Source: Candidatus Atabeyarchaeum deiterrae (lineage in GTDB: Archaea; Asgardarchaeota; Atabeyarchaeia; Atabeyarchaeales; Atabeyarchaeaceae). Taken from it: a stretch of DNA of 64,000 nucleotides. Positions 6,480-57,365 of the stretch are shown piece after piece. A program made the translations under genes and the position numbers. Position 1 is the stretch's first letter. Each line of letters starts with the position of its first letter. The DNA lies in assembly GCA_037310415.1 (NCBI GenBank), contig CP147780.1, positions 448,001 through 512,000 on the forward strand, in the 5' to 3' direction. The notes beneath the pieces are model-generated. The model was not told the DNA's origin. It ran no database searches and saw only the letters and a program-made list of their open reading frames with translations.

Positions 6480-6654
6480 GCAGGGGTAGCCAAGCCGGTC
6501 AAAAAGCAAGGTTTCGGCCTAAGGCGGTGGACTCAAGATCCACTCTCGAAATGGATGAAACGCAAAGAGGCTAAAAATGCGTTCCACGGGAAGGAGTTCG
6601 AGGGTTCGAACATCCTCTTTCACAAGAGGTTTGGAAATCCCTCCCCCTGCACCA
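6480..6654 (+). tRNA. tRNA-Leu(CAA) with 3 BHB introns (6503-6521 D-loop, 6551-6592 variable arm, 6611-6637 T-loop 59/60)
   Basis: Removing the three segments gives an 87-nt cloverleaf GCAGGGG...CCCCTGC-ACCA. Central helices are GGTC/GGCC, CTCG/CGGG and TTCG/TGGA, with 3-nt bulges. Confidence 0.92.
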
Positions 6655-6761
6655 ATAATCTGCTCAACAATATTCCCAAAGACTAACGCTTCAATACGCT
6701 TTCTGAATCATGTAGGTAAATCTCAGTTCGCAACATCAACTGTTGAAGTGTGAAATTACGG

Positions 6762-7442
6762 TCACTTCACATCCACTATCGTTCCGACCTTTTCCCCCTT
6801 TGCTGCAAGCAAAATGTTATTGGGATCAAAACCATTAACTACGATTACCTTTGCCTTCTGACTTTCAAGTATCTGAATCGATTGGAGATCCAATATCTGA
6901 TGCATTCCAGGTGTATGGGTTTCCTGAGTGACTGTCTTATAGAGGTCGATATAGGTTAGTTTGTCCAACTTCCTAGCGTCAGCGAACTTCTTAGGATCCT
7001 TGTCAAAGATACCATCTTGATCTGTTGCTTTTACCATGAGTTTTGAGCCAGTAGATCTGAGAACCAGAGCCGCGACAGTATCAGTTGTAATCCCCGGTTT
7101 CAACCCACCCATGACAACGATCTTACCAGCGACAAGTAGCCTCCTAACCTCCTCAACAGTAGAAGGAATCTGCCTTGAACTGTACTCACGAAGCTCTCTA
7201 GCAAGCAATTGACAGTTCAACCTCGAAACCAAGATGGCGATCTCATCTTTATCCTCATCTGATAGCCCCATCTTCTGAGCAACAGATATAAACTCCCTCG
7301 CCACTTTACCACCGCCCACGACCACGACAAGCTCATGCCGCTCATTCTTGAGCGATCTCAAGACTTCAGAATACCTGAGTATGAGTTCGGGATTCAATGG
7401 AGAGGCAATGACTGAGCCACCAATCTTAACCACGATTTTCAT
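6762..7442 (-). CDS. pyrH: UMP kinase
   Basis: VVKIGGS, VVGGG, PGITTD, DG..DKDP. Confidence 0.93.
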   Translation of the reverse strand: MKIVVKIGGSVIASPLNPELILRYSEVLRSLKNERHELVVVVGGGKVAREFISVAQKMGLSDEDKDEIAILVSRLNCQLLARELREYSSRQIPSTVEEVRRLLVAGKIVVMGGLKPGITTDTVAALVLRSTGSKLMVKATDQDGIFDKDPKKFADARKLDKLTYIDLYKTVTQETHTPGMHQILDLQSIQILESQKAKVIVVNGFDPNNILLAAKGEKVGTIVDVK

Positions 7443-7584
7443 TACTCAACCAACACCAGTGAGCGAATACATTCACGAAAGTTAAATACCTTGGTTGCTA
7501 AACGATATTTGAATAACCACTTTACGATTATATCAGTGTTACCTGTCCAACGCAAGAAAGCTATTACGGGGAGAAAAAGCAGAC

Positions 7585-8841
7585 ATGCCGAAGTACGACT
7601 CTTTCGAGAAGTTCAAACTTGAGAGGGAACTAGAAGCCCTTTCCAATAAGCATGGATTCCACACTGAACTTATCTCTCTCTACGTCCCTCCTGGAAAACA
7701 GCTCAGTGAAGTGACTAACAACTTGAAACAAGAATACGGCACATCAACAAACATAAAGTCGAAGTCCACGCGACAGCATGTACTCGATGCAATAACGACC
7801 ATCACACAAAGACTGAAGATGATGAAGACTGTTCCAGAAAACGGTCTAGCCATATTCTGTGGCGCGATCCCACAGAATGGGCAAGGAACCGAGAAAATGG
7901 AATTGTATCCGATAGTACCGCTGGAGCCAGTAAACATATACATTTACCGCTGTGACAACAAGTTCTACATCGATCCATTAAAAGACATGTTAAAGGAAAC
8001 AGAAACGTACGGCATAATCATGGTGGACCGGAGTGAGGCAGCTTTGGCCTCACTAAGAGGAAAGCATCTTGATGTTGTCAAAAGACTAACCTCTGGAGTC
8101 CCAAGCAAACACACCGCTGGCGGTCAGTCTCAGAGACGATTCGAAAGACTAATTGAGCAGGCAGTCCATGAATTCTTCAAGAGAGTCGGGGGACATGCAG
8201 ATGAGATATTTCTAAACGTGCCTGATCTAAAAGGAATTCTGATAGGAGGAGCTGGTCCAACCAAAGAGAGATTTGCCCAAGGGGGATTCATGAACTATCA
8301 GCTTCAGCAGAAAGTGCTTTCACTTGTCGACACTGGCAACTCGGGGGAAGATGGCATAGAGGAATTGATCGAGAATTCAAGTGAGCTCCTGAAAGGGGTG
8401 CGCTATACTGAAGAAAAGAAACTTGTACAGAGGTTCCTTGAACTCCTTGCAAAGGACACAGGACTTGCAGCTTACGGAGAGAAGGAAGTCCGGGAGCTTC
8501 TTAATCAAAGTACGGTGGATACACTTCTCCTGTCAGAGGCCCTAGATACTGTCAGAGTGACAGTGTCATGTGCCAGCTGTGGATATAAGAGAGAAGAGAC
8601 AATTCGCCAGTCTAATCTTAGCTCATTCCAGCAAACAGCTCAGAGTTCAACTTGTCCTAAGTGCAATTCCCCGCTTGCAGTAACCGAGACAAAGCCGATA
8701 CTAGATGATCTTGCAGAACTGGCTGAAAAGACGAATGCAAAGGTTGAAGTCATATCAACAGAGACTGAAGAGGGTCAGGAGCTAAAGCAAGGATTCGGGG
8801 GCGTGGCTGCCACACTAAGATACCGCCCTGCCAACTTATAA
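7585..8841 (+). CDS. prf1: Peptide chain release factor aRF1
   Basis: NIKS, YxCD and GGQS motifs; Zn-ribbon minidomain. Confidence 0.97.
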   Translation: MPKYDSFEKFKLERELEALSNKHGFHTELISLYVPPGKQLSEVTNNLKQEYGTSTNIKSKSTRQHVLDAITTITQRLKMMKTVPENGLAIFCGAIPQNGQGTEKMELYPIVPLEPVNIYIYRCDNKFYIDPLKDMLKETETYGIIMVDRSEAALASLRGKHLDVVKRLTSGVPSKHTAGGQSQRRFERLIEQAVHEFFKRVGGHADEIFLNVPDLKGILIGGAGPTKERFAQGGFMNYQLQQKVLSLVDTGNSGEDGIEELIENSSELLKGVRYTEEKKLVQRFLELLAKDTGLAAYGEKEVRELLNQSTVDTLLLSEALDTVRVTVSCASCGYKREETIRQSNLSSFQQTAQSSTCPKCNSPLAVTETKPILDDLAELAEKTNAKVEVISTETEEGQELKQGFGGVAATLRYRPANL

Positions 8842-8876
8842 CAGATTTAAATCCTGATAACTGCTCTTGTTCTGAG

Positions 8877-11379
8877 GTGATTACCATTTCTAAACCAGAA
8901 TTTGGAGAGAAGCATTGGTCCGTTAAGACGGAAGAAGAAATACTGCAGAAGTGGAGAAGCAAGAAGAGCTACTCCTTCGACTTGAAGAATGGGAAGCAGC
9001 CGTTTTCCATTGACACACCTCCACCCTACGCAAGCGGTCGGTGGCACCTCGGTGGGGCAGTACACTACTCACAGATTGACATGATAGCTAGATGCAAGAG
9101 AATGGAAGGCTATGAGGTTCTCTTCCCGATGGGCATCGACCGAAACGGATAAGTCCCCCCCAAGTCGGAGAGACTCCGGATTACCGATCGAGGTTCAGGC
9201 GGAAAAAGAGTTCGGGGTTAAGATGAATGAAACACCCAGAGGGGAGTTCATAGAATTCTGCCACAACTTGCTGGACAAATACGAGGATGACATTTTATCT
9301 ATTTCAAGAAGACTAGGGCTGAGCTGCAATTCCCTGGAGCAGAAAGAAGTGTACAGAACTGACAGCCCCGAATACCGCAGGATAACTCAAGCAACATTCA
9401 TTAAACTTTGGAACATGGGCTTAGTATACGAAGATCGGAGGCCCAACAACTACTGCACGGACTGCGGAACCACAATAGCGGATGCAGAAATAGAGTATAG
9501 CGAAATAGAAACATCATTGAACTACATCAGATTTAGGATCGAGGGATCTAATGAGGAGATCATTATTGCCACTACCAGACCGGAGCTTCTCTGCGCCTGC
9601 GCTTGCGTGTTAGTTCACCCTTCTGACGAGAGATATAAGAAATTTCACAAGAAGACCGCACTAATCCCGATTTATGAAAGGAATGTGCCAATAATAGCTA
9701 ATCCTGCTGCCCAAATGGAGTTTGGAACGGGGGCGGCAATGATCTGTTCGTATGGTGACTACACTGATGTCAGACTCTACAGAGAACTTCAGCTGGCGCC
9801 AGTGGACGCCATAGATCATAACGGGAGAATGACGGAAGCTGCAGGAGAACTTAAAGGACTCAAAATACCTGAAGCAAGAAAAGAGATGGTGGCAAAGCTA
9901 AGACACCAAAGCGCATTGATCAAACAGGAAAGAATAATGCACAGGACACCCGTCTGTTGGCGAACAAGAACCCCCATCGAATTCATTGCAATGTCGGAGC
10001 TATATTTGAAACAATTGGATTTCTTGGGAGAATTAAAGAAGACAATCGACAAAATGGAATTCTATCCCCCACCAAGCAAACACATCCTTTCAAGCTGGAT
10101 TAACTCCGTAAGCGTGGACTGGCCGATAAGCAGGAGAAGATACTACGGTACAGAAATTCCATTGTGGTACTGCCTAAAGTGTGGTAAGCCCGTCGTTCCA
10201 GAACCCGGAGAATACTACCAACCATGGAAGGATGCCCCACCGTTCGTTAAATGCTCCCACTGCGGTGCGAAAGAAGGCTTCAAGGGCGAGGAAAGAACCT
10301 TTGACACATGGTTTGACTCAGGGATAAGTGAACTTCAAATCCTCGGTTATCTAAGAGACGAAGAATCTTTCAAGAAGCTATTCCCTTGTTCAATAAGACC
10401 TCAAGGGAAAGACATAGTCCGGACGTGGTGTTACTATTCAATCCTCAGAACCTACCAGCTCCTGAAGGAACGAGCATTCAAGAAAGTCTGGATAAGCGGG
10501 CATGTAATGGACGACAAAGGGGAAAGAATGTCGAAATCGCGCGGAAACGTAACGTGGCCTACCCCACTAATGGACAAGTACGGCGCAGACGCACTCAGGC
10601 TTTGGGGATGCCTGGAAGCGGGTTTGGGAAGCGATATTAGGTTCTCTGAACCCCGACTCGCAAGCGCTCACAGCTTCTTAACAAAGCTATGGAACATATC
10701 GAAATTCATATCGGCTTTTGCAGATCCTGCAGACAAGGACATAGAACTGCTGGCTTCAGATAGGTGGATACTGTCCGAACTTAATCAGATGGTCAATGAC
10801 GCAATTGAAGGATACCAGAAGTTGGACTTCAATATCCCAGCTACCAAGATACGGACATTCACATGGGAGACTTTTGCCTCTCACTACATTGAAATGGCTA
10901 AGGCGAGGGCATACAATAAGGGGAAGATCTTCCCCGAAGGGCAACAGAGAGGCGCGTGGTACACGCTTCACATGTGCCTTAAGACGATAATAATGGTACT
11001 AGCACCCATATGCCCCTTCATAACTGAAGAAATCTACGGGGGATTGTACTCACAGGAGGAAAGCATACACCACCAGTCTTTTCCAAAACCAAAAAAAGAA
11101 TGGGAAACACCACTCAGAACACTTACTCCTCTCATCATGGAGGCAAACAGCGCAATTTGGAAAACGAAGAAGGACAACAAGCTGCCACTGAATGCCCCAG
11201 TAAAGACGCTTTATCTGCCACAGGAACTCGAACAACTGGGGGAAGATCTCAAAAGAATGCATAATGTGGAAAACATAAGCTTTAAACCACCTGCAAAGAC
11301 ACTAACAGAGAAAGAGAAATACATAGTTGTAAAGATCGATCAAAGCAAGAGACAGAGTCAGATATTCATCAGCATCTGA
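8877..11379 (+). CDS. valS: Valyl-tRNA synthetase, interrupted by a 31-nt insert (join 8877-9150 and 9182-11379)
   Basis: ORF 8877-9152 has DTPPPY and HLGG (HIGH-like) and ends GIDRNG-stop. The second frame resumes LPIE and carries DTWFDS and RMSKS. Deleting 31 nt restores DRNGLPIE. Confidence 0.93.
9151..9181 (+). other. Candidate BHB intron in valS mRNA
   Basis: Central helix ACGG(9145-48)/CCGG(9176-79), bulges AT^A and AT^T, inner stem AGTC/GACT, outer TCGACCG/CGATCGA. Standard BHB cuts remove exactly 31 nt and restore the frame. Confidence 0.8.
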
Positions 11380-11472: not shown

Positions 11473-11658
11473 GGGCCCGTAGCTCAAAGTGGAGGAGAAT
11501 GAAAGCAAGCTTCCACTGGCAAAGCTTGGCTGGAGCGTTCGGCTGAGCATCTGGGTAACTTTGCCAGATGGGCAACTAACCGAATAGGTTGAGGAAAAAC
11601 CTGAAAAGAACCTTACCCTCGGGGCAGGTCGCGAGTTCGAATCTCGCCGGGCCCACCA
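11473..11658 (+). tRNA. tRNA-Ile(GAT) with 3 introns (11487-11523 at 14/15, 11547-11576 at 35/36 inside the anticodon, 11585-11625 at 43/44)
   Basis: Spliced product is a 78-nt GGGCCCG...CGGGCCC-ACCA cloverleaf. Each intron is a hairpin with a relaxed BHB. Confidence 0.9.
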
Positions 11659-11687: not shown

Positions 11688-11796
11688 GGGCCGGTAGTTC
11701 AGACTGGAAACCACCTTGCAGTGACTAAGGGTGAACATAAGATACGCCGGCTTCGCAAGCCGGAGGTCGTGGGTTCAAATCCCACCCGGTCCACCA
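11688..11796 (+). tRNA. tRNA-Ala(CGC) with a ~31-nt D-loop intron (~11710-11740)
   Basis: G3:U70 pair; CCGGC-TT-CGC-AA-GCCGG. Comparison with the intronless Ala(TGC) defines the insert. Confidence 0.9.
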
Positions 11797-12075: not shown

Positions 12076-12111
12076 TTAATCTCCCAATGCAACTTGCGAA
12101 ACTCCTATTGA

Positions 12112-13609
<1,498 letters not shown>

Positions 13610-14534: not shown

Positions 14535-14552
14535 TTACGAGTAAGGTCTGAT

Positions 14553-17660
<3,108 letters not shown>

Positions 17661-17829
17661 AGGCCTGAAAGCCCTCGGTCTGGGTGAATTTAGATCTCCC
17701 ATTTATTGTTCGGCGGGTGGAATTCTGTGCGTGGTGATCTCCTCATTTCTCTTGGACTAGTCAATCCCATGTTTGCCCCCTTGTTGATGGAAATTCTTAT
17801 TTGACATTCCTCGTAAATGTATTCTTGGA

Positions 17830-18236
17830 GTTAGGACGTGGGAGCGCGGCTGCCGGTGCCTTTCTTTCTCTTTGAGGAAGCTAGGTGCTGAGGAAGGTCT
17901 CCCCTCCACCAGACTTCGGTGCAGCGAAAGCTGCGAGGCGAGAGCCTCGCTCCAGGATCAGAAACGACACGTCCACACGTGAAATGACTATGATGCGGTT
18001 GAGGCGATGCTTACAGTGAGCGTCTCCGAGCAGGAGCCAGGGTAACCTAGCTCAATAACCCGCTGAGGATCCTTGTGGGAGCGGTGAAACGGCCTGCCAC
18101 CGAGGAGAAAGCCCAAATAGGCTGTGGATGATGCGTCTGGCTGAACCAGCGGGTAGGGTGAGTAGCTGGATGCCGCAAAGGGTGTTTCGGCGACGAAACA
18201 TCTGGAACAAAAGGGGGCCTACTACCCACACCTGAC
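17830..18236 (+). ncRNA. rnpB: RNase P RNA
   Basis: GAGGAAGGTCTCCCC pairs with AACAAAAGGGGGCCTACT (P4); CAGAAAC and GGTGAAACGGC conserved regions; terminal P1 stem. Confidence 0.9.
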
Positions 18237-22713: not shown

Positions 22714-22904
22714 TGGTAGCGGGGGATGGATTTGTCCTTCGTGGGAGTTGATCCCACGGATTTGAACCATCGATCTCAGGGTATCCCAGTGGGACATCTT
22801 ATGAGCCATCCGCAGGAGGATTTGGCTATCTCCTACTGCGGGATCTCCTGAGTGGGCCAACCTACCTCCTGATCCAGAAGTAAGGGTGCCTACCCTACCC
22901 CGCT
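22714..22904 (-). tRNA. Initiator tRNA-Met(CAT) with 4 BHB introns (22852-22889 at 15/16, 22808-22835 at 29/30, 22783-22799 at 37/38, 22732-22761 at 58/59)
   Basis: 191 nt minus 38+28+17+30 gives 78 nt with A1:U72 and GGG/CCC anticodon-stem pairs. Central helices are GGGT/GCCC, CCGC/GCGG, CTCA/TGGG and GTTC/GGAC. Confidence 0.92.
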
Positions 22905-23105: not shown

Positions 23106-23180
23106 TGGACCGGGTGGGATTTGAACCCACGACCTCCGGCTTGCAAAGCCGGCGCGGCTTCCAGCCTGCGCTACCGGCCC
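23106..23180 (-). tRNA. tRNA-Ala(TGC), intronless, CCA not encoded
   Basis: GGGCCGG...CCGGC-TT-TGC-AA-GCCGG...CCGGTCC-A; G3:U70. Confidence 0.95.
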
Positions 23181-23218: not shown

Positions 23219-23330
23219 GGCCGGGAGCGGGATTTGAACCCGCGTCAAGGGCTCCACAGGCCCCTAGGCTAACCACTCTTGAGACGCTACCCAGCTACTC
23301 ATCGATGGGGAGCGTTATCCCATCCCGGCC
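23219..23330 (-). tRNA. tRNA-His(GTG) with encoded G-1 and a 37-nt intron at 14/15 (23279-23315)
   Basis: GGGGC-CT-GTG-GA-GCCCT; BHB GGGA/TCTC with inner CGCT/AGCG. Confidence 0.9.
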
Positions 23331-41149: not shown

Positions 41150-42421
41150 TCATAACTCGTAGGAGTCTCCATTGCTAGGGGCGATCGCCTCAATCCTCAG
41201 CTCAGTTCTTATTCTTTCTGCAAGAGACGTGCAAGCCTCTTCTTCCCCATGAACTACATAGACTTTGGCCGATGAATTCAATCCCTCCAGAATTCCCCAG
41301 AGTTCAGATCTTCCGCAATGACTTGAGAAGTCAAAGAACTTAACCTCGGACCTTGCCTTTCTCTTCTCTCCATTATTGGATATGTATGTCCCTGTTTCTA
41401 TTAGGCTCCTGCCAGTTGTTCCTGGTATTTGAAAACTGACCAAGAAGATACCGTTTTTCGAGTCTTGTGAGAGGGCGTTCAAGTAGTTCACAGCGGCGCC
41501 ACCATCAAGCATTCCGGCAGAGGCAACTATTATGCCTGGATTTGAAAGCGCTTTTTCTTTGTCTCTCCTGTCTCGAACCCAAGTCGCCCTATCCAAGGCA
41601 CGACGTAAAAGGGAGTAGTCCTTAACAAAGTCTGGATTACTCAGGATTATCTTGCTTGCAGCCCTAACCATGCCATCGATCGTTACGGGATAGTTCACGC
41701 CATACTTTTCCAGGACACAGAGAATTTCCTGCGACCTAGCGACGGCAAAAGCTGGAATCAGAACTTTCCCTTGACTCTCTTCCAATACTTCTCTAACCGA
41801 ATCGACGAACTCTCTCTCCGTATCTTTTCTCTTTGGATGGTCTTGAAGAGCATACGTCCCTTCAATCACGACTGCATCCATATCCGAGAGATCGATCTTA
41901 GCGCCTTCTAAGAGACCACTCTCAATAGTATTTATGTCACCAGTCACCAGAACTCTTTTGCCCTCGGTTTCGATTATGGTGGATATGCTTCCTGGAATGT
42001 GACCTGCGTCTGTAAACTTGAGATGGATATTGCCATTAGGGGTGGCCTCATCCCCGACCTTTACAGGATGGCTTCTATTTAACATCCTAGCTAACTCGTT
42101 TTCCTCAAACGGAAGCAACTCCCCGCTAAGGTTTATCTCATCAGTCAGAAGAAGTTCAGCAAGCTCCAGTGTCATCTGTGTAGCGTAAAGCTCCGTGTTA
42201 CCCGAAACGTAGAGCAATGGCATTGCACCGGAATGGTCAAGGTGAGAGTGAGTGAGAATGATGGCAGATATCTCACGAGGGTTGCACGGCAGTGGAAAAT
42301 GAGGAGCTCCACTCATATAGATTCCATAGTCAACTAAGACTGATTCATTGTTCGACCTTACCAGAACAGAGGACCCTCCTATGGTCCTGCATCCTCCCAA
42401 AAATCGTATTAACGTTTTTAT
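41150..42421 (-). CDS. MBL/beta-CASP family ribonuclease; start uncertain (ATA 42421 or TTG 42400)
   Basis: IRFLGG, LTHSHLDHSG, AGHIPGS, TGD, PAFAVARSQE, FSSH, VHGE. Confidence 0.9.
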   Translation of the reverse strand: MKTLIRFLGGCRTIGGSSVLVRSNNESVLVDYGIYMSGAPHFPLPCNPREISAIILTHSHLDHSGAMPLLYVSGNTELYATQMTLELAELLLTDEINLSGELLPFEENELARMLNRSHPVKVGDEATPNGNIHLKFTDAGHIPGSISTIIETEGKRVLVTGDINTIESGLLEGAKIDLSDMDAVVIEGTYALQDHPKRKDTEREFVDSVREVLEESQGKVLIPAFAVARSQEILCVLEKYGVNYPVTIDGMVRAASKIILSNPDFVKDYSLLRRALDRATWVRDRRDKEKALSNPGIIVASAGMLDGGAAVNYLNALSQDSKNGIFLVSFQIPGTTGRSLIETGTYISNNGEKRKARSEVKFFDFSSHCGRSELWGILEGLNSSAKVYVVHGEEEACTSLAERIRTELRIEAIAPSNGDSYEL

Positions 42422-42569
42422 GGGCCCCCTAGGTCGAACGATTCAAAGAATCCACAACAAGAATCACGGCAAACCTCGCTGGGGAAGCAAAGTTGTCGCT
42501 CGACTAATTAAACCTAGCTCCGAATCCAAATAAATATGTCTTAACCTCTACCTTCCGCAAGAAAAGAGA

Positions 42570-42579
42570 TAAGTTAATT
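42570..42579. repeat. Putative left att core TAAGTTAATT
   Basis: Identical to 50418-50427; coincides with the composition shift. Confidence 0.55.
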
Positions 42580-42703
42580 AAACGCTACTTTAAAGTTCCA
42601 TTCTCAAAACTTATTTGTCCTCTGGCTCATTCTCACTCCATAGAGGGACTTGTTATTGTAACAAATGTCTATCGACTATTCATTTGACGATTAGTGACAG
42701 TCT

Positions 42704-43117
42704 TCACCCCAAGAATGTAGTCCACACTCCCAAGGCAATCAAAGGAATTATCCAACCACCTAACCACTTATAGAATCCCCAAACCATACTTTTCCAGAAA
42801 CTCTCACTCCTATTGTGAGATAAGAGATTATACTTCCAAACAGAATACACAAATAGCAATAAACCAATTCCAGCCGTGCCCAAATAAAATATTAGCACAA
42901 GTTTTGAACCAAATGATTCAACCATCATTGGAAGCGTCATGAAAAGACTGCCAAGTAATGGTAAAACAATTCCAGTTGAAACATAGTATATAGTACCTGC
43001 AAAACTGTAAAGGCTACTAAGCAATGCTAAAGCTCCCACAATACTGGAAAGCCACCAGAATCTAGTTTCTTCCTGAAGCTTCTTCTTTTTCGTCTTCCTC
43101 TTTTTAGACGCATTCAT
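42704..43117 (-). CDS. Element membrane protein (3 TM)
   Basis: Basic N-terminus and hydrophobic segments. Confidence 0.65.
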   Translation of the reverse strand: MNASKKRKTKKKKLQEETRFWWLSSIVGALALLSSLYSFAGTIYYVSTGIVLPLLGSLFMTLPMMVESFGSKLVLIFYLGTAGIGLLLFVYSVWKYNLLSHNRSESFWKSMVWGFYKWLGGWIIPLIALGVWTTFLG

Positions 43118-43202
43118 TTTCCCTAATCCCCAATTACAGTTAGAGGAGGCTAGAGATATACCTTCCTAGCTATGGTACATTCCCCTCTCCCGCCTTTCGG
43201 CA

Positions 43203-43421
43203 TCAATGCTTTAGTGTCTCTTCGGCACATTTTCGTGCCTCGTCAGCTTTAATTTTCTTAATTTTCTGGAAAATCTGATTTCCCTTAAGATTAAGCGCCC
43301 TAATTTCAGAGATCGGTTTTCCTCTCTCCGTCGCCTTTAATGCTTCATTCTCAACCGACACATATTCATTATTCAACCTTTCAATTCTTTTACATTCATC
43401 TGACTTCTTATGTTGCGTCAT
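43203..43421 (-). CDS. Element hypothetical helical protein
   Basis: 72 aa; GGAGGAGGTGG SD upstream. Confidence 0.6.
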   Translation of the reverse strand: MTQHKKSDECKRIERLNNEYVSVENEALKATERGKPISEIRALNLKGNQIFQKIKKIKADEARKCAEETLKH

Positions 43422-43748
43422 ACTGTACCACCTCCTCCACCTCTATCAACCAAGGCTAGTATTGCTTGAAGATCATTTACGACTTTTTTCTTTTCACATT
43501 CAGATATAGAGGTTATCAGTCAGCTTATCGAAAGGGCTGATAACCGTGTACCGCCCTTCGACATCCTGACATCTAAGGTGTAATATCTCATGAGATAATT
43601 AATCCGAATAATCCGAAAATACCTAACCCCCTACCCGTCCCCTAAGTAATAACTAGCATAATAATAGCACCATAATGTACATGCCACATCATAACCTGAC
43701 AGCTTGGGGTGTAATTCCCTAGCGGGAATTTTCCGATTTATCCCCTAT

Positions 43749-43904
43749 TTAATTGAAAAATACCTTTGCCGTCCGACAGCCACATTCACACTTCAAGAAA
43801 ACCGTGTCCATCATCGAGCCCTTTTTGACATTGGCAATATTCATCCACCGCCCGCATCGATGGCATTCTACCAATAGAGTTGAATAGTCTTCCAAATCCG
43901 ACAT
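43749..43904 (-). CDS. Element zinc-ribbon microprotein (51 aa; not in the ORF track)
   Basis: MSDLEDYSTLLVECHRCGRWMN...FLKCECGCRTAKVFFN; SD upstream. Confidence 0.65.
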   Translation of the reverse strand: MSDLEDYSTLLVECHRCGRWMNIANVKKGSMMDTVFLKCECGCRTAKVFFN

Positions 43905-43949
43905 TATCCCCGCCTCCCCCTTTCCTTACCATATTCATCTCACCAATGA

Positions 43950-44390
43950 TCATTGAAGTGGAATTACCTTATCAGCAAATCTCTTACCCATCCGTATTAT
44001 GACTTTATTAACCAACAAAAGATAAGTTTTCAAAAACTCCGTATAATACCTTCTATTCGACTTATCATTCGCAAGATTATCTTGAAGTTCATTCCAAGAG
44101 CCTGTCAATGTCTTCATATCAGCCTTATCCTCGAGATACATGCAAGACTGTACCACATCAGTAAGCAACATTTCATCCAACTCAAGAAAAACATTGCCAT
44201 CATAGTTTACCTTACCATCCAAAACACTGTTTACAAATTCTATTTTATCTAGAACAGTATGAATTGCTTTGCACCAGCCGTCATAAATCCACAACTCATT
44301 CTTAATCATTTTAATGACATGATCAATTCTCTTTTTTAGAACCTTGTCGATATCCATGCTTCTCGCTTCCCAGTCATACCCAATGCACAT
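43950..44390 (-). CDS. Element hypothetical protein
   Basis: Open frame co-oriented with neighbours. Confidence 0.55.
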   Translation of the reverse strand: MCIGYDWEARSMDIDKVLKKRIDHVIKMIKNELWIYDGWCKAIHTVLDKIEFVNSVLDGKVNYDGNVFLELDEMLLTDVVQSCMYLEDKADMKTLTGSWNELQDNLANDKSNRRYYTEFLKTYLLLVNKVIIRMGKRFADKVIPLQ

Positions 44391-44413
44391 ACTCTATCAG
44401 TAATTCCGCTCCC

Positions 44414-45286
44414 TTAACCAAGATCAATATTGTGATCCAGTCTTAACCGTTTTACTACTTGTTTAGGTAATGCCCTGATAGCTACATCCCGATTCTTACC
44501 ACCCTTTGGAGGGATATAGACCTCACGATAAGCTGAGAATAACAATATCCCTTTTTGACCTTCATCCGCTTTAACGTATTTGTAATGCCAATCTTTTACA
44601 CCGACTTTTACACACGTCCCGAAACGATCCAGACTTTTCTTGAAAATAGGAGTTCTCTTAGAAGGCTCTTCTTCAGCTTGAGCATCGACCTTCTCTAGTT
44701 GTGCGCTCTGTGATGCTCTATCTTCTGAGATTAGCTTCTTCAATTCTGATCCCGACAACTTACAAGGCTCTTTTTCCTTCTCCCCCTTAGATTTTACATA
44801 ACACAGATAAAACGGTTTACCGCCTTTATGAGCTTCGACATTACAGTAACCACCATTAGCCCTAGCCCACTGATCCGCCAATGCCTTATTAGAAAATTCA
44901 CTATATGGCTTATCGACACGATCCAAACTAGGATCAGAGTGTTTACCTTCTTTCATCATCCGCCAGAGATTGAATGTCCTGACTTCGTCCCTAGGTACAC
45001 CCTTTAAATCCTTTCTTTCGTCACCTTCTTCAGTTAGCCAGTACCGCCAAGTTTTATACTTCTCAGCATATTTAGGATCATTTTTACACCCCTCATCAAA
45101 AATCGATTGTTTCCAAATTATATACTTTCTTGGTCTGATGTGTCCCCTGACTCCTTTGATAATCTTATTCGCTTTTATAAAATCCTTCTTTAGCTTCATG
45201 AACTCTCTGAGAGTCCTAGGATTCGGTACGCAGGCATCACTAACCTGCGGTATATCTAAACGTTTCAACTTTTTCACTTTCGACAT
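44414..45286 (-). CDS. Element basic hypothetical protein (possibly nucleic-acid binding)
   Basis: 290 aa, K/R-rich; GGAGGT SD. Confidence 0.7.
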   Translation of the reverse strand: MSKVKKLKRLDIPQVSDACVPNPRTLREFMKLKKDFIKANKIIKGVRGHIRPRKYIIWKQSIFDEGCKNDPKYAEKYKTWRYWLTEEGDERKDLKGVPRDEVRTFNLWRMMKEGKHSDPSLDRVDKPYSEFSNKALADQWARANGGYCNVEAHKGGKPFYLCYVKSKGEKEKEPCKLSGSELKKLISEDRASQSAQLEKVDAQAEEEPSKRTPIFKKSLDRFGTCVKVGVKDWHYKYVKADEGQKGILLFSAYREVYIPPKGGKNRDVAIRALPKQVVKRLRLDHNIDLG

Positions 45287-45576
45287 ATGCTTACTACCTC
45301 CCGATCCCCCTTCTCCTATTCTACCCTATCCCCCTTGATGTAAGGGATTGATGTAAGGGTTCAATCGCTAGGGGATTGATGTGTCCCTTAACCCCAACAA
45401 TCCTCTTGAGGATAATCGAGAAGAAAAGAGAAAGATTATCCTAAAGAAAGAATAGAAAGAAAGGGTTTTGAAAGAGAAAAGAAATGATATTTCCTTTCTT
45501 TTTCTTTTACTTGTTTTTGAATAATCACCTTGTTTTAGTTTCTCTCATACCTCCCTCAAAGGAAAGAAAAAGAAAA

Positions 45577-45776
45577 CGTATCTTCTCCCTTTCGTAAAAA
45601 GATACGAAGTCGGCTAGTTCAAAGGGAGGAAAACTAACCGACTATTACAAGCCTTTCCTTAGCCTGCGCCTTGTGGATTGAACTTGTAACCGTAAAGGCA
45701 CGATCTCACTTGGAGCAAACTAGAGATCGTACCTATGCTTGGATGGATCACCACCGACTAGTGTGGTGAACTAGTC
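45577..45776 (-). ncRNA. Candidate structured RNA in the element intergenic region
   Basis: Consecutive stems, complementary loops CTCCCTTT/AAAGGGAG, mismatches that become G-U on the minus strand, U-rich tract after it. Confidence 0.55.
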
Positions 45777-45787
45777 AGGGATGACTT

Positions 45788-46228
45788 TTACTGTCTAGCG
45801 TACTGACCAATTAGATATACAGCGCAAGAATAGATAGCCATCACGACAGCGAGCACAATAACGATCATGCTGAAAATCAATCCATCCATCGAATTGAATA
45901 TAGCCATCGAGATGCCTCCAGTTAAAATACCGTACATAAAGTATCCCCCCGCGATAGCTAGACCTGTAACAGCTCCAGCGCTAGCGCCAGCCTTTGCAGA
46001 GTTTTGTCCCGCAAGCCCCGCAATGATAGCGCCAAATACTATACCTCCTATGCAGAGAGCTAGCAGTATCCAATCGTACATAAAGACCGAGATAAACCCA
46101 GTCAATCCAAAGACCACAAAGTAGATTCCCAAAGGTACGATAGTTATGAACGATGTCCCTAAGCTTGCTAGTGCTCCTGCAATATCTTGAGAACTAACCA
46201 TAACCTGATCACTCTCCCCAAACATCAT
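45788..46228 (-). CDS. Element Gly/Ala-rich multi-TM protein
   Basis: About 4 hydrophobic helices with GxxxG/A motifs. Confidence 0.7.
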   Translation of the reverse strand: MMFGESDQVMVSSQDIAGALASLGTSFITIVPLGIYFVVFGLTGFISVFMYDWILLALCIGGIVFGAIIAGLAGQNSAKAGASAGAVTGLAIAGGYFMYGILTGGISMAIFNSMDGLIFSMIVIVLAVVMAIYSCAVYLIGQYARQ

Positions 46229-46266
46229 AGTGTTTGAGACTCACATTTTTTGATGACTTCATAAAT

Positions 46267-46404
46267 CTAGTCAGAATGAAACCATTTCAGGATTTTAGAT
46301 CGCTTCTCTCTCCAATCTTTTCCAGAGATTTCACGATCCAGATATTGTTTATTCAAAATACGTAAAGCCTTAATCCGATCCCTTCGTGTTTTGTACCCGC
46401 CCAC
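46267..46404 (-). CDS. Element small basic protein (45 aa)
   Basis: GTG start after GGTGA SD: MGGYKTRRDRIKALRILNKQYLDREISGKDWREKRSKILKWFHSD. Confidence 0.45.
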   Translation of the reverse strand: MGGYKTRRDRIKALRILNKQYLDREISGKDWREKRSKILKWFHSD

Positions 46405-46516
46405 GTTTATCACCTTTGAAGTATTTCAATAACCGAAAGCCGACACACTTAGGATCAGAGCCATCACAGACATTGACCTTATACACTTTATCGGATTTTG
46501 ACTTTGACATTCTAGA

Positions 46517-46939
46517 TCATCCCCCAGTTTTCCATAGAAGTGACCAGTTAGCACTATTCCCAAATATGAGAGCTAGGACAACTAGAATGATCATGAAGGC
46601 AAACTCTCCGAGCGCCCCCCACTGAGCATTTAGTAAACTTAAACCGATTCCGACAAATCCAAATAAGATCAAGCTAGCCGTAACCACCATCACGGCTATT
46701 GTACCGCCCAGTATAGCGGTTTGTAGTTTACTATCAAAGAGCCACAGACCGACTAGTACCACAAATATGATAATGCTAACACTAGCTACTATCGCCCATA
46801 TGTTCATACAGAGATAGTTAAGGTAAATTCCGATCACTCCAGTGATCAGAGCAATCGCTAGGGGAGGCATTGTAATCAACATGATGATCGATCCGATAAC
46901 CCGCCTAAGTATATCTTGCCAATCTATATTCTCAAACAT
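46517..46939 (-). CDS. Element multi-TM protein
   Basis: About 4 TM helices; GGTGA SD. Confidence 0.7.
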   Translation of the reverse strand: MFENIDWQDILRRVIGSIIMLITMPPLAIALITGVIGIYLNYLCMNIWAIVASVSIIIFVVLVGLWLFDSKLQTAILGGTIAVMVVTASLILFGFVGIGLSLLNAQWGALGEFAFMIILVVLALIFGNSANWSLLWKTGG

Positions 46940-46953
46940 GATCTATATCACCT

Positions 46954-47307
46954 TCACAAATGCCAGACCTGACCTAGTAATCCCCCAAACCAAGTCGCTA
47001 AATCGTCCCCAAATCTAAGCCAGTCGTCCGCCATCAAAATGACACCGATCACCAAAAACACCAAGACGAAAATGTTGAATTTTCCATTTCGAATGAACCA
47101 AAAGACCATCACAAAAGTCATGATAAACCCCGTCATGCCATGATGCCAATGAAACGTCCCGACCTGAATATTGAAAAGAGCCAGAAGACCATTCCAAACA
47201 CCTACTAGTAATTCGACTCCCCCGATCATGAACGTGATCAACGTAGTGATCGCTAGTGCTGTCCCAAGATAGACTAACATCTTATTTTTGAAATTCCACT
47301 TTATCAT
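46954..47307 (-). CDS. Element membrane protein with HxHH...DD motif
   Basis: 3 TM; FHWHHGMTG and ILMADD. Confidence 0.7.
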   Translation of the reverse strand: MIKWNFKNKMLVYLGTALAITTLITFMIGGVELLVGVWNGLLALFNIQVGTFHWHHGMTGFIMTFVMVFWFIRNGKFNIFVLVFLVIGVILMADDWLRFGDDLATWFGGLLGQVWHL

Positions 47308-47346
47308 AGCAATCCTCCCCCGATGCCCTGACCTGACAAAAAGAGT

Positions 47347-47514
47347 TTACTTATCGCAAGGCTCTACAATTAAAAACTTAGTCTTAGGATCGACTTTGAT
47401 CTTCATACATTGATGATCGTGTATGTTAGCTTCTTCCGCTATTTTGGTCGGTATATACAATGCCTTGCCGTATTTGCTTATTGGGTACAACTTACCTTTA
47501 CCTTCGTTCGTCAA
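47347..47514 (-). CDS. AbrB/SpoVT-like DNA-binding protein (55 aa; not in the ORF track)
   Basis: MTNEGKGKLYPISKYGKALYIPTKIAEEANIHDHQCMKIKVDPKTKFLIVEPCDK; G.ALYIP..IA...I pattern; GAGGTGA SD. Confidence 0.7.
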   Translation of the reverse strand: MTNEGKGKLYPISKYGKALYIPTKIAEEANIHDHQCMKIKVDPKTKFLIVEPCDK

Positions 47515-47557
47515 AATAGATCACCTCTCTTCTAACCAGTACTACAGTAAAGAGTTA

Positions 47558-47603
47558 ATATACTAGAAAATTAACTCCGCCCGCCTACTTATATACTAGA
47601 AAA
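47558..47603. repeat. 13-bp direct repeat ATATACTAGAAAA x2, 33 bp apart
   Basis: 47558-47570 and 47591-47603; the first copy is bracketed by inverted GAGTTAA/TTAACTC. Confidence 0.75.
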
Positions 47604-47635
47604 CGTTCCATTCCAAAAAATAAGAAATAGAGGTT

Positions 47636-48052
47636 TTACCGTTCCCCTTTCAGTATCGCCTCTTTCCTTGCTCTGCTTTTTGACTTGCTTCTCTTTCCCT
47701 TCTTCGTTTTCGCCTCAAGCTTCAGTATCCGTTCAAGCAAACCAACATCACTTTGAGCAGCATGAAGTGTGCTCTTACTACTCCTATAATTTTCCCAGAT
47801 CACACCGATCATAAATGGAACGAAGATTTGACCAAATTTGAACAACGCATTAACATATGCTATAGGTATGCCAGATATTGTGATATTTGCAAATGGATAT
47901 TCCATAGCCCTAAACGCCACAGAATCAAATGTTGAAGAGAACACAACAAGAAAAACAACTGCAAAAACAGTAAAAATCACATTTCCTAGAAGAAAAATCC
48001 TATTCCTATGTCTCCACTTTTCAAACAGTTCCTCAATACTTTTCTTCTCCAT
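47636..48052 (-). CDS. Element 2-TM protein with basic tail
   Basis: Hydrophobic segments; K/R-rich C-terminus. Confidence 0.65.
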   Translation of the reverse strand: MEKKSIEELFEKWRHRNRIFLLGNVIFTVFAVVFLVVFSSTFDSVAFRAMEYPFANITISGIPIAYVNALFKFGQIFVPFMIGVIWENYRSSKSTLHAAQSDVGLLERILKLEAKTKKGKRSKSKSRARKEAILKGER

Positions 48053-48098
48053 TTACTTCTATTCCCCTTTGACTCCCCCCATTCTTGCTTCACCGTCT

Positions 48099-48929
48099 TC
48101 ATGCTTTTGGTGTTACGATAATGGCGAGTTCAGGCTCCGTAGTCAATACAGGAGGTACAAATTTCAGCTTGAATTTTGGTTTCTCATCTTTCATTAGTTT
48201 AATCGAAGAGCTTTTCTCATCATAATAGTATAACAGGATTTTTCTGCTCCTCATCAAGAAACTGACGATATGAGAGATTGCGGATTCATTATGCGCACGA
48301 TCTTGCTCTTGGAATCCAGCTTGCTTACCAAGTTTGACTCGGATATCAGTTTCAATCTCAGCTTTAATCACTGGATAAACATCCTTGGAAAACTCTTTCA
48401 CGTTCTTGCCCTCTGTGAGGATTACTGGAAGATCAAACTCAGACGATGTCACTGCTAATTTCTTCATCTTGGATAACAAGTAGAGCACTTCGTCACGTTC
48501 AAGCTTCCATTTCTCGTTTTCGTCATAAGCCTGTTCCCCGTACAAACATGTTAGCACAAAGTTGACCGTACCCAATCTATCCGACATAAATAAGTAATAA
48601 ACTGTCCATGCTATGAAAGCAAGCAACCCGACAAGGAAGGGATCGAAGTAACTTCGCAAAAACGCAATTGCGGCAAACATGCCTACTAAGACGGTAACTG
48701 AACCAACCCTTCTCTGCACGTATTCACTCTTCCAGTCTTTTAGTGATGCATAATACGCTCTTTTCTTATCTTCATCTGCAAACCAAAAGAATGTTTTTTC
48801 ACGAAACCAAAATTCTTCCAAATGTTGATTCATTTTCTTTGGATAGTATGAGAAGAACATGCGCCCGCCCACATACCACAGTAGGCTTAATAGGATTTCT
48901 ATCCTGACAAACACAATGAAGGTTATCAC
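48099..48929 (-). CDS. Element membrane protein with soluble C-terminal domain
   Basis: N-terminal TM helices; 276 aa; start uncertain. Confidence 0.65.
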   Translation of the reverse strand: MITFIVFVRIEILLSLLWYVGGRMFFSYYPKKMNQHLEEFWFREKTFFWFADEDKKRAYYASLKDWKSEYVQRRVGSVTVLVGMFAAIAFLRSYFDPFLVGLLAFIAWTVYYLFMSDRLGTVNFVLTCLYGEQAYDENEKWKLERDEVLYLLSKMKKLAVTSSEFDLPVILTEGKNVKEFSKDVYPVIKAEIETDIRVKLGKQAGFQEQDRAHNESAISHIVSFLMRSRKILLYYYDEKSSSIKLMKDEKPKFKLKFVPPVLTTEPELAIIVTPKA

Positions 48930-49058
48930 GCTAATTGCTACTATGAAGAAATCGACTATGAATAACTTCAGATTACCTGCGCCACCTATATCTTCTAATC
49001 ACAGAATGATAGAGCAAATGCATTCTTAAATCTTCCATTACGCAAGCGCTAACTTTGG

Positions 49059-50345
49059 CTAGTGGGTTTTCTCGGCTCTCTTCTTAACCTTATCTAGCGT
49101 TTCCTTTTCGATCCCCTGAGCCGATTTATAGTACTCCTCACTTTCCTTCTCTTCTTGCTTTTCTAGCTCCTCAGCTTTTTCGTACGGCGCCTCTCTCCCT
49201 AGTTCCTTCGATAGTGTGTTGACATGCATTTGTAATCCGATTACTGCGCTCAACATCTCTTTTCTCGTTTTCTCGTTTTCTTCTCTTAACTTGGTGATAA
49301 TGTCTTTTAGATCGCCTACTTCTTTTCCCAGATGGTTACCGTTCAGGTTTATGCTAATGTATATCTCCCGCTTTGCGTACTCTTCCCTGACAATATCTGC
49401 TTGCTCACGCTGATAGACCTCAGCTAGTTCCCCGATACTATGCCCTAACAAAAAGTCAACCATTCCAGTCGGCATCGCATGAGATGCCATTACCGATCCA
49501 AATGACTCCCGAAGAGCATGAGGATTTACTCCCTCAACTTTAACATCTTTAGGAATCAACCCCGCCCTAATTCCTATATCTCTCAAGTTTTTCTGTACTG
49601 ACTGCGTTTCGATTCTCTCTTTACTCGACAGCTTGTCTTTAAGGAATAACGGATCACTTGATCCTAGTGTTATGCCCTTACTCTGAAGATCAGTCAGATA
49701 GTTGTTTATTGCATCAATCGCATTTCGCCCGATAAACGTATAGAAATCTGTCCCGCTTTTCTCTCGGTATAGATCAATCTTTAGCGGACTCTCCCCCGCA
49801 TTCAATCCTTTTTCAACCTGACCATAGTTGATACTGCAACAAGTACTAACATCCATCCCACCTTGAAACAGAGTTAGGATTATTGCCTTATCTCTTAGAT
49901 TGAGAGTAAAGTCAACTAGCCTTTTCACATCGCTTGTAGTTAAAAGAGCACGCTTATGAGTGACCTTAGGCTTTGGTAATTTACTATGCCCTTTCAACCT
50001 GACCATTAGATCAAAAGTACCATAGAAAGACCTTATAGCTCCAGTCCACTGACTAGCTTGCTTGGGAGTATATCCCTTAGTTCCATCCTTCCGTACAGCA
50101 TCTTTCAGCATCCAGTTATGAAACCCGATCAATCTCTGCTTAAGTATATTCTCTCTCTGCCTGACATCCTTCTTTGAATCTTCGATAGCCTCATCGATTA
50201 GCTCTGTCGGATTCTTGCCCGCATACTCGATAAACCGTAATAGAGCACTAACATAAGCTTTGAAGGTATTAGCCTTCGTTATCTCACTTAGCCATTTCCT
50301 AGACTCTGGATATTTGTCTAAACCCTTAAAATCAGATTGGCTCAT
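49059..50345 (-). CDS. Tyrosine recombinase / integrase
   Basis: SAM-like N-domain, RDKAII, REK, HALR, LLGH, Y; C-terminal coiled coil. Confidence 0.92.
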   Translation of the reverse strand: MSQSDFKGLDKYPESRKWLSEITKANTFKAYVSALLRFIEYAGKNPTELIDEAIEDSKKDVRQRENILKQRLIGFHNWMLKDAVRKDGTKGYTPKQASQWTGAIRSFYGTFDLMVRLKGHSKLPKPKVTHKRALLTTSDVKRLVDFTLNLRDKAIILTLFQGGMDVSTCCSINYGQVEKGLNAGESPLKIDLYREKSGTDFYTFIGRNAIDAINNYLTDLQSKGITLGSSDPLFLKDKLSSKERIETQSVQKNLRDIGIRAGLIPKDVKVEGVNPHALRESFGSVMASHAMPTGMVDFLLGHSIGELAEVYQREQADIVREEYAKREIYISINLNGNHLGKEVGDLKDIITKLREENEKTRKEMLSAVIGLQMHVNTLSKELGREAPYEKAEELEKQEEKESEEYYKSAQGIEKETLDKVKKRAEKTH

Positions 50346-55445: not shown

Positions 55446-56303
55446 TTGTTAAACTGGAACTTGAATCATGGTGAGCATAGCTTGGCTGATGACACCATAG
55501 ACAAGCTTGAGCAGAGAAGGATAGATAAACATAAGTTCAGACTAAAACGCGTTGAAGACTCGCGAAGCATTGAAGGAGTAATAGATCAGTTAACGCTCTT
55601 TACATTATACGATTTGATAAACAAGGGCCTACTCAGAGTAATCCATGGAGTCATAGCCACTGGGAAGGAATCGAACGTTTACTGGGCCGAGAACGCAAAG
55701 GGGCGGAGCGTGGCAGTAAAAATCTATCGCACCTCAACGGCCGATTTCAAACGAATGCGAGAGTATGTAATTGGTGATCCTAGGTTTAAGCGAATCAAAG
55801 GCGGGACCCGTTCAATGATTTTCACTTGGGCTGAGAAAGAATTCAAGAATCTTAGAACAGCCTTTGACATCGGTGTCCGTGTCCCGAAACCAATCGCCGT
55901 GCAGAAGAACGTACTTGTAATGGAATTCCTGGGTAGGTCGGGCATACCTGCACCTAGGCTGAAGGACGAAGCACCTAGTAACCCCTCGTCGACTCTGAAG
56001 ACAATCATACACTATTTGAAATTGCTCTACACGAAAGCTGAGATAGTTCACGCTGACCTTAGTGAATATAATGTACTGATGTGGAAGGGTCCAGTACTAA
56101 TCGATATCTCGCAGGGGGTACATATATCTCATCCGCTCTCCAAAGAGTATTTGAAAAGGGACCTTCAAAACATAACTAGGTATTTCTCTTCACTTGGGGT
56201 CTCAACCAAACCTGTTCCCCAGATATATGAGGATGTTACGGGGGAGGAATACAAGGAGCAGTTCTTATCGTCTGAATCTATATCTATGAGACGAGCTCCA
56301 TGA
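55446..56303 (+). CDS. rio1: RIO1 kinase
   Basis: TGKESNVY, AVKIY, WAEKEF.NL, HADLSEYN, IDISQ. Confidence 0.95.
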   Translation: MLNWNLNHGEHSLADDTIDKLEQRRIDKHKFRLKRVEDSRSIEGVIDQLTLFTLYDLINKGLLRVIHGVIATGKESNVYWAENAKGRSVAVKIYRTSTADFKRMREYVIGDPRFKRIKGGTRSMIFTWAEKEFKNLRTAFDIGVRVPKPIAVQKNVLVMEFLGRSGIPAPRLKDEAPSNPSSTLKTIIHYLKLLYTKAEIVHADLSEYNVLMWKGPVLIDISQGVHISHPLSKEYLKRDLQNITRYFSSLGVSTKPVPQIYEDVTGEEYKEQFLSSESISMRRAP

Positions 56304-56890
56304 TTCAGGCAAAAGAAGTGATTAGGATCCCCCAAGCAAGGGTAGGCGTTGTCATAGGGAAGGATGGTGAAGTTAAGAAAAGGATTGAACAGGAGACTAA
56401 TACAAAGATAACCATAGACAGTGAAGAGGGAAACGTTACAGTTGAGACGACTGAGGAGACTGAGGATCCTCTCGCAGCCTGGAAAGCTCGTGACATCATA
56501 ATGGCAATTGCCAGGGGATTCAACCCCAAAAAAGCTTTCAGGCTCCTCGAGGAAGATGAGGCCATAGAGGTGATAGAATTATCGGACTTCGTAGGAAGAT
56601 CCGAGAACGCTCTCAACAGAATAAGAGGGAGACTGATAGGGGAAAACGGAAAAACCAGACGAATCATAGAGGAATTGACAGGTGGAAATATCTCCATCTA
56701 TGGACGCACAGTAAGTATCATCGGTGAATTCGATCAATTAAGCGTTGCCAAAGAAACACTCATATTGCTCATTAATGGCGCCCAACATAGAACGGTTTAT
56801 AGATTCCTTCACAGAAAAAGCAGGGAGCTGAAAAGAGCTAGAATGGAGCTTTGGAAGCCCAGGGTTGAAGTTAAGGATCAATGGCGCTGA
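56300..56890 (+). CDS. Dim2/Pno1-like KH-domain rRNA processing protein
   Basis: R.GVVIGKDG, AI.RGF, RGRLIGENGKTR. Confidence 0.92.
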   Translation: MIQAKEVIRIPQARVGVVIGKDGEVKKRIEQETNTKITIDSEEGNVTVETTEETEDPLAAWKARDIIMAIARGFNPKKAFRLLEEDEAIEVIELSDFVGRSENALNRIRGRLIGENGKTRRIIEELTGGNISIYGRTVSIIGEFDQLSVAKETLILLINGAQHRTVYRFLHRKSRELKRARMELWKPRVEVKDQWR

Positions 56891-57073
56891 GGAATTGTGC
56901 CTGACTTACAGCCTTTGTTTGTCACCACTCTCTTCAGCCACTGACACTCTCGTACCCTTTTTGGTTCACACAATAATAGTGTTTACAGTACAAGCTTTCC
57001 GAAAACCTTAATATTACAAACTATTTCTACAATAGTCTACAACCGTTACCAAATAGTTGTCTCTAGTGGAAGC

Positions 57074-57216
57074 GCCGGGGTAGCTCAGCCAGGTAGAGCA
57101 GCGGGCTGTTAACCCGTCGGTCACACACGTGAGCAACATGTGGACTACAGGTTCGAAAGTCAAGAGGAATCTATATACCTAGTCCTCTGAGACCGGAAAC
57201 CCTGTCCCCGGCGCCA
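57074..57216 (+). tRNA. tRNA-Asn(GTT) with 2 introns (57125-57148 at 50/51, 57158-57199 at 59/60)
   Basis: 143 minus 24+42 gives 77 nt; BHB GGTC/GACT and TTCG/CGGA. Confidence 0.92.
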
Positions 57217-57239
57217 CTAATATGTCCGCCATTGAATGT

Positions 57240-57365
57240 GCTCCGGTAGTCTAGTCCGGTCATCCGTCAGGTCCGAAAGGATAGAGGCCCTTCGAGCCTC
57301 CGACGCGGGAAGCCTTGATCCATTCGGATAAGGGCTCGCGAATCCGAATCCCGCCCGGAGCACCA
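57240..57365 (+). tRNA. tRNA-Glu(TTC) with 2 introns (57263-57277 D-loop, 57310-57342 at 53/54)
   Basis: 126 minus 15+33 gives 78 nt; GAGGC-CC-TTC-GA-GCCTC; BHB CGCG/CGCG. Confidence 0.88.

Follow-up and report, generated by a model that had tools for sequence, protein, structure and literature searches.

The 64,000-nt stretch of DNA considered here (the window) covers positions 448001-512000 of the one-contig, 2,756,679-bp genome of Candidatus Atabeyarchaeum deiterrae, an Asgard archaeon of the Atabeyarchaeia (labelled G000), and it raises the question of how a cell might use genes as heavily interrupted as its tRNA genes, its 23S rRNA gene and valS, the gene for valyl-tRNA synthetase (ValRS). 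A first-pass annotation, made from the letters of the window, had described the inserts as bulge-helix-bulge (BHB) introns of a permissive splicing system. Its observation is confirmed by our analysis and its interpretation is supported by sequence comparison: we put at about 0.88 the probability that the inserts are archaeal BHB introns spliced by EndA and RtcB in tRNA, 23S rRNA and mRNA. Under this model, the last exon bases before an intron would pair in the primary transcript with the 3' end of that intron, giving a 4-bp helix flanked by two 3-nt bulges; EndA, acting as an (alpha-beta)2 enzyme, would cut each bulge 3' of its second base, leaving the exons for RtcB to join. The predicted substrates are nearly all tRNAs, the sarcin-ricin loop of 23S rRNA and the mRNAs of valS and at least eight other genes. 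What can be read directly are the inserts, BHB motifs at homology-defined junctions, a cloverleaf, loop or reading frame restored upon removal, and conservation accompanied by compensatory change; cutting and ligation in vivo, and the role of EndA in the process, we infer. The genomes used for comparison were G001 (a sister genus) and G002, both placed with G000 in family f1, and further Asgard genomes including G003, G008 and G026. Junctions in valS, 23S rRNA and the other mRNAs were placed by homology, independently of the motif.

The valS gene (8877-11379, plus strand) is the only ValRS gene of the genome and is single-copy, other synthetase-like matches being partial and at other loci. Its match to the NCBIfam valS model TIGR00422 falls into two pieces in different frames, separated by 28 nt, the first covering model positions 8-83 and the second 83-812. 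The upstream frame ends in ..MGIDRNG followed by a TAA stop that starts at 9150, and the downstream frame resumes with LPIEVQ; removal of 31 nt (9151-9181), with exon 1 at about 8877-9150 and exon 2 at 9182-11379, restores the frame as ...DRNG|LPIE... with its conserved G-L-P. This predicted intron is in phase 1, splitting the Leu codon of the GLP motif as T|TA. The predicted junction peptide contains GIDRNGLPIEVQAEK, and the spliced product aligns over positions 1-815 to the ValRS of G003 in one gap-free segment; its closest named public relative belongs to a 'Promethearchaeati archaeon' metagenome-assembled genome (73% identity). The junction is bounded by a BHB motif with central helix ACGG/CCGG, bulges AT|A and AT|T and inner helix AGTC/GACT, and among 16 registers tested only 9151-9181 has a BHB-like score. 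The sequences of G001 and G002 leave only one possible junction (GGAT|A...GGAA|TG), equivalent to 9151-9181 in G000, and the inner helix has changed in a compensatory manner across the three genomes (AGTC/GACT in G000, AGCC/GGCT and ACCC/GGGT in the other two) while the loop has diverged. Only these three members of family f1 have a split valS; among 28 other Asgard genomes, 24 carry a gene that runs uninterrupted across the insert position and one gives a partial, uninterrupted match.

The archaeal rRNA operon of the window comprises 16S (12111-13608) and 23S (14549-17663) rRNA genes, followed by RNase P RNA (17834-18233). In the 23S gene a 34-nt insert (17344-17377, plus strand) separates GAG from A in the GAGA tetraloop of the sarcin-ricin loop and breaks the universal sequence AGUACGAGAGGA; splicing restores AGUACGAG|AGGAAC. 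Repeats of AGAGG at both ends of the insert allow six placements, and 17344-17377 is the only one to give a central helix paired at 4/4 positions (TACG/CGTA), AG|A for both bulges and a long inner helix, so that the motif lies within the boundaries that homology permits. When the 23S genes of G000, G001, G003, G008 and G026 are aligned, the insert is found in G000 and G001 only; the gene of G002 aligns across it without a gap, and the insert is conserved in both sister genomes. The first-pass annotation had placed one intron each in 23S and valS, and homology locates both.

Further inserts are present in related 23S genes: four more small ones in G001 (33, 49, 32 and 106 nt; L038), absent from G000, and one of 389 nt in G026 (L042) near the equivalent of G000 position 17130. 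Therefore the rRNA intron content differs among close relatives. As a separate observation, the RNase P RNA exceeds the Rfam model by about 110 nt and has extra hairpins, among them one of 25 nt at 18178-18202, between GAUGCCGC and UGGAACA, in which no BHB motif was seen by eye.

The suggestion that other apparently frameshifted genes of this genome may be spliced is supported by eight more split protein genes with BHB boundaries, which makes them candidates for the same processing as valS. A homology-free genome scan, requiring a BHB motif and the fusion of two open frames, returned 1,052 clusters against 1,188 for a decoy pairing rule; since it had no power against the decoy, we used tblastn instead, searching the 1,658 open reading frames (ORFs) of the complete 1.42-Mb genome G003 against G000 for single proteins that match as two adjacent pieces in different frames. 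This gave 11 cases, of which two were rejected: nuoC/nuoD, which are separate genes in G000 and fused in G003, with no BHB found, and a PRK04286-family gene with an in-frame 213-nt surplus and no BHB. The nine kept are valS and, outside the window (coordinates on G000:C1), pcm (insert at 321676-321704), a TIGR00375-family gene (338672-338632), cbf5 (395677-395717), glyA (652709-652749), an AmmeMemoRadiSam radical-SAM gene (919059-919007), mtaP (938197-938160), gatE (2222266-2222226) and type III RuBisCO (2663508-2663481).

Each of the nine surpluses (28-53 nt) is bounded by a BHB motif at the length predicted by homology, with a central helix of 4/4 pairs in seven. For the eight split genes that were checked, removal of the insert yields a single alignment to the G003 orthologue that spans the junction; for cbf5 this alignment covers 326/326 positions without gaps, and for mtaP the same boundary is best for both alignment score and motif. 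Eight of the nine introns fall in codon phase 1, and all nine in conserved motifs (e.g. CxxxCP|WC, GGG|IH and VVG|MT). In cbf5 the 41-nt intron lies between the G and the AT of the catalytic Asp codon, and the same split occurs in Asgard families f1, f7, f15, f17 and f18 of the 20 sampled (L157-L168), with clear CTCT/AGAG BHBs in f1 and f15. As the split genes represent nine of the 783 G003 ORFs with a strong match, the genome-wide number is by extrapolation probably a few tens.

The tRNA genes were sought by scanning for a 7-bp acceptor stem together with a T-arm or a CCA end, after which a cloverleaf solver took out up to four BHB-like segments and scored the resulting cloverleaf. The first-pass count was reproduced: of 10 tRNA genes in the window, nine contain inserts, 19 in all and 16-257 nt long. 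In an unspliced search of the window, ARAGORN and Rfam at its gathering score see one intact tRNA only, Ala(UGC), with a borderline Rfam match (29.7 bits) at 11729-11788, inside the Ala(CGC) gene. Once spliced, all nine are called by ARAGORN, each with the expected anticodon. The geometry claimed for the inserts, built on a 4-bp helix, also recurs, the central helix having 4/4 pairs in 14 of the 19 tRNA introns and in 23S, and 3/4 in the other five and in valS; an inner helix of at least 1-10 bp is present in all 19. When each intron alone was left in place and its boundary compared with shifts of up to 10 nt, no shifted boundary outscored the chosen one in 17 of 19. The sites are the D-loop or D-arm (six introns), anticodon stem 29/30, anticodon 35/36, 37/38, 43/44, 44/45, the variable arm, T-stem 50/51 and 53/54, and T-loop 58/59 and 59/60. 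As had been claimed, only two introns, those of initiator tRNA-Met and tRNA-Leu(UAG), occupy the canonical 37/38 site, to which a tRNA-Val intron is sequence-equivalent.

Between G000 and G001 the tRNA genes are 93% identical in exons and 60% in introns, and their intron content varies, several introns being found in one genus only. No intronless copies of the interrupted tRNAs, which would have told against splicing, were found in the genome by BLAST of the mature sequences. Run on the whole genome with introns disallowed, ARAGORN calls just seven tRNAs, two of them lacking an assignable anticodon and three with a length of 97-101 nt; it follows that the cell must rely on the interrupted genes. 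Nor was a second copy of any intron found in the genome.

Three genes lie on the plus strand upstream of the rRNA operon. The tRNA-Leu(CAA) gene (6480-6651) has introns at 6501-6519 (D-loop), 6551-6592 (variable arm) and 6611-6637 (T-loop 59/60), the same three being present in G001 (identity 0.99 in exons and 0.55 in introns). The tRNA-Ile(GAU) gene (11473-11655) is interrupted at 11487-11523 (14/15), 11547-11576 (35/36, inside the anticodon) and 11585-11625 (43/44), and tRNA-Ala(CGC) (11688-11793) has one clear BHB intron at about 11701-11729 (alternative register 11702-11728). On the minus strand, the initiator tRNA-Met gene (22717-22904) contains four introns, at 22852-22889 (15/16), 22808-22835 (29/30), 22783-22799 (37/38) and 22732-22761 (58/59), all four shared with G001; once spliced, it shows two features of archaeal initiators, the A1:U72 pair and the three G:C pairs. 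Next to it are tRNA-Ala(UGC) (23106-23180), the sole uninterrupted tRNA gene of the window, and tRNA-His(GUG) (23219-23329), with one 39-nt intron at 23278-23316 (13/14). A two-intron model of tRNA-His had a slightly higher solver score with a weak, 16-nt second intron; we preferred the single intron, which has a 9-bp inner helix and is common to G001, where the 13/14 intron is kept and a second is found in the anticodon loop. The tRNA-Leu(UAG) gene (23927-24268) has one intron of 257 nt (23972-24228), far longer than the other tRNA introns of the window, and absent from G001, where the gene carries a 22-nt anticodon-stem intron instead. No homologue of this long intron was found in G001, in G002 or elsewhere in G000, nor any Rfam match, and its fold is not unusually stable (z = 0.47). 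Separately, G001 shows an apparent extra insert near the T-arm or 3' end of initiator tRNA-Met, tRNA-Ile and tRNA-Leu(UAG) (L048-L051), and its initiator tRNA-Met may have five introns.

The remaining three genes are on the plus strand. The tRNA-Val(CAC) gene (39340-39467) is interrupted at 39378-39398 (36/37 by BHB register, the intron with sequence equivalence noted above) and 39407-39438 (44/45), tRNA-Asn(GUU) (57074-57213) at 57125-57148 (T-stem 50/51) and 57158-57199 (T-loop 59/60), and tRNA-Glu(UUC) (57240-57362) at 57262-57277 (D-loop) and 57310-57342 (53/54). The spliced T-loop of tRNA-Glu (57343-57349) reads UCCGAAU, with C at the normally invariant U55, and is identical in G001. A three-intron model that would give a normal TTCGAAT T-loop was ruled out, as the TTCG it needed is absent in G001.

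The proposed enzymes are encoded in the genome, in keeping with the permissive EndA plus RtcB that had been postulated. There are two EndA paralogues, each with PF01974 and PF02778, and an RtcB (582 bits). One EndA, of 238 aa, is encoded at G000:C1:215530-216246 on the minus strand, and the other, of 198 aa, at 625319-625915. The longer EndA is closest to chain 3p1z_B of the Aeropyrum pernix tRNA-splicing endonuclease (E = 1.9e-46), which we take to be the catalytic alpha subunit of that enzyme. The alignment covers a GYYGQP..KP..DF stretch, presumably the Crenarchaea-specific loop, and the His of GIDHAPF, presumably the catalytic one. The shorter paralogue is without that His, as expected of a structural beta subunit. 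By these sequence features EndA is predicted to have the crenarchaeal-type two-subunit, (alpha-beta)2, broad-specificity architecture, one reported to cut non-canonical introns (PMC5829648, PMC3241643).

Several features weigh against BHB splicing by EndA and RtcB, or weaken the tests of it. The central helices of valS and mtaP have only 3/4 pairs, a relaxed form of the motif. An adjacent outer helix is lacking in valS, in many of the tRNA introns, which are thus also of relaxed form, and in 23S, whose motif is classed as relaxed for this reason. The solver itself used the BHB motif, so that the tRNA boundaries were partly chosen by it and the boundary test is in part circular and not fully independent. 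Finally, tRNA-Ala(CGC) is not resolved to a normal tRNA by BHB removal alone. The valS insert, moreover, invites a translational explanation in which the mRNA is left intact and the ribosome skips the insert, by programmed frameshifting or by a bypass such as that of phage T4 gene 60, with its matched GGA codons, stop after the take-off site and intervening hairpin. In G000 a GGA codon precedes the TAA stop, a second GGA follows 31 nt downstream of the first, and the two flank a hairpin; take-off and landing on GGA would yield the same ValRS protein. Landing on the second GGA in G001 and G002, however, gives G-M-P and not the conserved G-L-P, and the palindrome TCCGGA in the central helix accounts for the GGA repeat of G000. 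Matched codons are absent from the other eight mRNA inserts, and the same motif recurs in tRNA and rRNA, where translation is irrelevant. We therefore consider skipping by the ribosome very improbable beside BHB splicing.

A slightly less remote alternative, though one to which we give little weight, is that some of the interrupted genes are decaying pseudogenes, chiefly tRNA-Ala(CGC), whose codon tRNA-Ala(UGC) can read. The poor fit of this gene had been remarked on in the first-pass annotation, and it persists: with the intron removed, the tRNA has either a 5-nt D-loop and a 10-nt connector, the extra 9-10 nt standing between D-stem and anticodon stem, or two D-stem mismatches, and a BHB that would account for the 9-nt surplus was looked for and not found. 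Its orthologue in G001 is an intronless, normal gene of 74 nt. The D-stem of tRNA-Ala(CGC), however, has changed from GCGC/GUGC to GUUC/GAAC, compensated on both sides, which argues for continued selection, and no other copy exists of the other eight interrupted tRNAs, valS or 23S; tRNA-Ala(CGC) may be either decaying or processed by a route not evident from its sequence. About as improbable as ribosomal skipping is the retention of the inserts in mature RNA as expansion segments, or their removal by other means, e.g. self-splicing. Asgard rRNAs are known for large expansion segments, and the RNase P RNA of G000 also has extra hairpins, but extra sequence inside the GAGA tetraloop, an anticodon, a T-loop or stems is incompatible with function, a group I or II ribozyme core takes hundreds of nt, far more than inserts of 16-42 nt can hold, and the inserts (16-257 nt) match none of the intron families in Rfam even at E up to 10. 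That the inserts are assembly or sequencing artefacts is scarcely credible, as the same inserts occur at the same sites in three independently assembled genomes of diverged sequence, and we found nothing in support of it.

Apart from these genes, the region 42000-50000 of the window stands out by a G+C content of 0.40-0.42, vs about 0.45-0.47 elsewhere, a strongly negative GC skew and a minus strand that carries every listed long ORF; this may be a block of foreign or specialised genes.

If BHB splicing by EndA and RtcB does act on all three classes of RNA, an Asgard archaeon, and thus a close relative of the eukaryotic ancestor, would need its tRNA-splicing enzymes both for the synthesis of several essential proteins and for an intact GTPase-activating loop in its ribosome. 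Gene callers will label such genes as frameshifted, truncated or pseudogenes, distorting metabolic reconstructions and completeness estimates of these lineages. The system would also be a tractable one in which to study the origin of BHB introns, the reasons for their preference for conserved motifs and phase 1, and any regulatory use of splicing. A broader and distinctly tentative reading, which we think more likely wrong than right when all its parts are taken together, is that mRNA splicing by EndA and RtcB is a routine part of gene expression in the Atabeyarchaeia, with about 1% of genes (including valS, glyA, gatE, cbf5, mtaP and RuBisCO) yielding no protein otherwise, and with introns nearly always in phase 1 in active-site motifs; that the cbf5 Asp-codon intron, found in at least five Asgard families and in Crenarchaeota, descends from the common ancestor of TACK and Asgard archaea; and that the splicing of protein genes by the tRNA machinery is older than eukaryotes.

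How much of this was already known differs between the classes of RNA. For the Atabeyarchaeia and Freyarchaeia, 92-95% of tRNA genes are reported to be interrupted, with 228 introns in three genomes (Valentin-Alvarado et al., 2024; PMC11291895), and a 2026 preprint gives 2.2 inserts per tRNA gene, up to five in one, and two EndA paralogues (Goswami et al.; 10.64898/2026.10.13.758758). Together these papers put interrupted tRNA genes at 92-97%, mostly at non-canonical sites with BHB motifs, and according to the preprint, splicing is yet to be demonstrated for any of the intervening sequences that it newly identifies. The tRNA component is thus known for the lineage, and the tRNA part of our window adds nothing beyond these two reports. 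The text of the preprint contains neither 'rRNA' nor 'mRNA' and uses 'protein-coding' only of neighbouring genes, and that of the 2024 paper contains none of '23S', 'frameshift', 'pseudogene' and 'interrupted'. Within an incomplete coverage of the literature, we found no reports of rRNA or protein-gene introns for this lineage, and nothing beyond cbf5. The 23S and mRNA components would represent a new use of a known mechanism.

Of the systems known elsewhere, the Thermoproteales, to which the first-pass annotation had compared the window, hold as an analogue, in a different phylum; the host lineage is Asgard (Atabeyarchaeia). Their tRNA genes are said to carry up to three introns each. These multi-intron genes likewise have non-canonical BHB introns (Sugahara et al., 2008, as cited in PMC11291895), and a heterotetrameric EndA of broad specificity, the architecture predicted for G000. 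The intron load is 1.9 per tRNA gene in the window vs 1.54 in Pyrobaculum calidifontis (10.64898/2026.10.13.758758), and a further difference from the Thermoproteales is that no intron of G000 has a copy elsewhere in its genome. Phage T4 gene 60 shares with valS of G000 the layout of GGA codons, stop and hairpin, which is not conserved in the sister genomes, and bypass of that type cannot explain the tRNA and rRNA inserts. In Crenarchaeota, 16S and 23S introns, excised by EndA at BHB motifs, usually run to hundreds of nt and often contain homing-endonuclease ORFs; the 23S intron of G000, by comparison, is only 34 nt long, has no ORF and lies in the sarcin-ricin loop. For the protein genes the precedent is the cbf5 intron of Crenarchaeota, which is short, frame-breaking and BHB-bounded, with a cut between bulge bases 2 and 3; as of 2009, splicing had been confirmed for no other archaeal mRNA (Yokobori et al., 2009; PMC2738675). 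The cbf5 intron of G000 splits the catalytic Asp codon (G|AT) just where the crenarchaeal one does, and that of valS resembles the same type in being short, frame-breaking and BHB-bounded in a single-copy gene, though its host gene differs. In contrast to crenarchaeal cbf5, the candidate hosts here extend to valS and at least seven further genes, in an Asgard archaeon.

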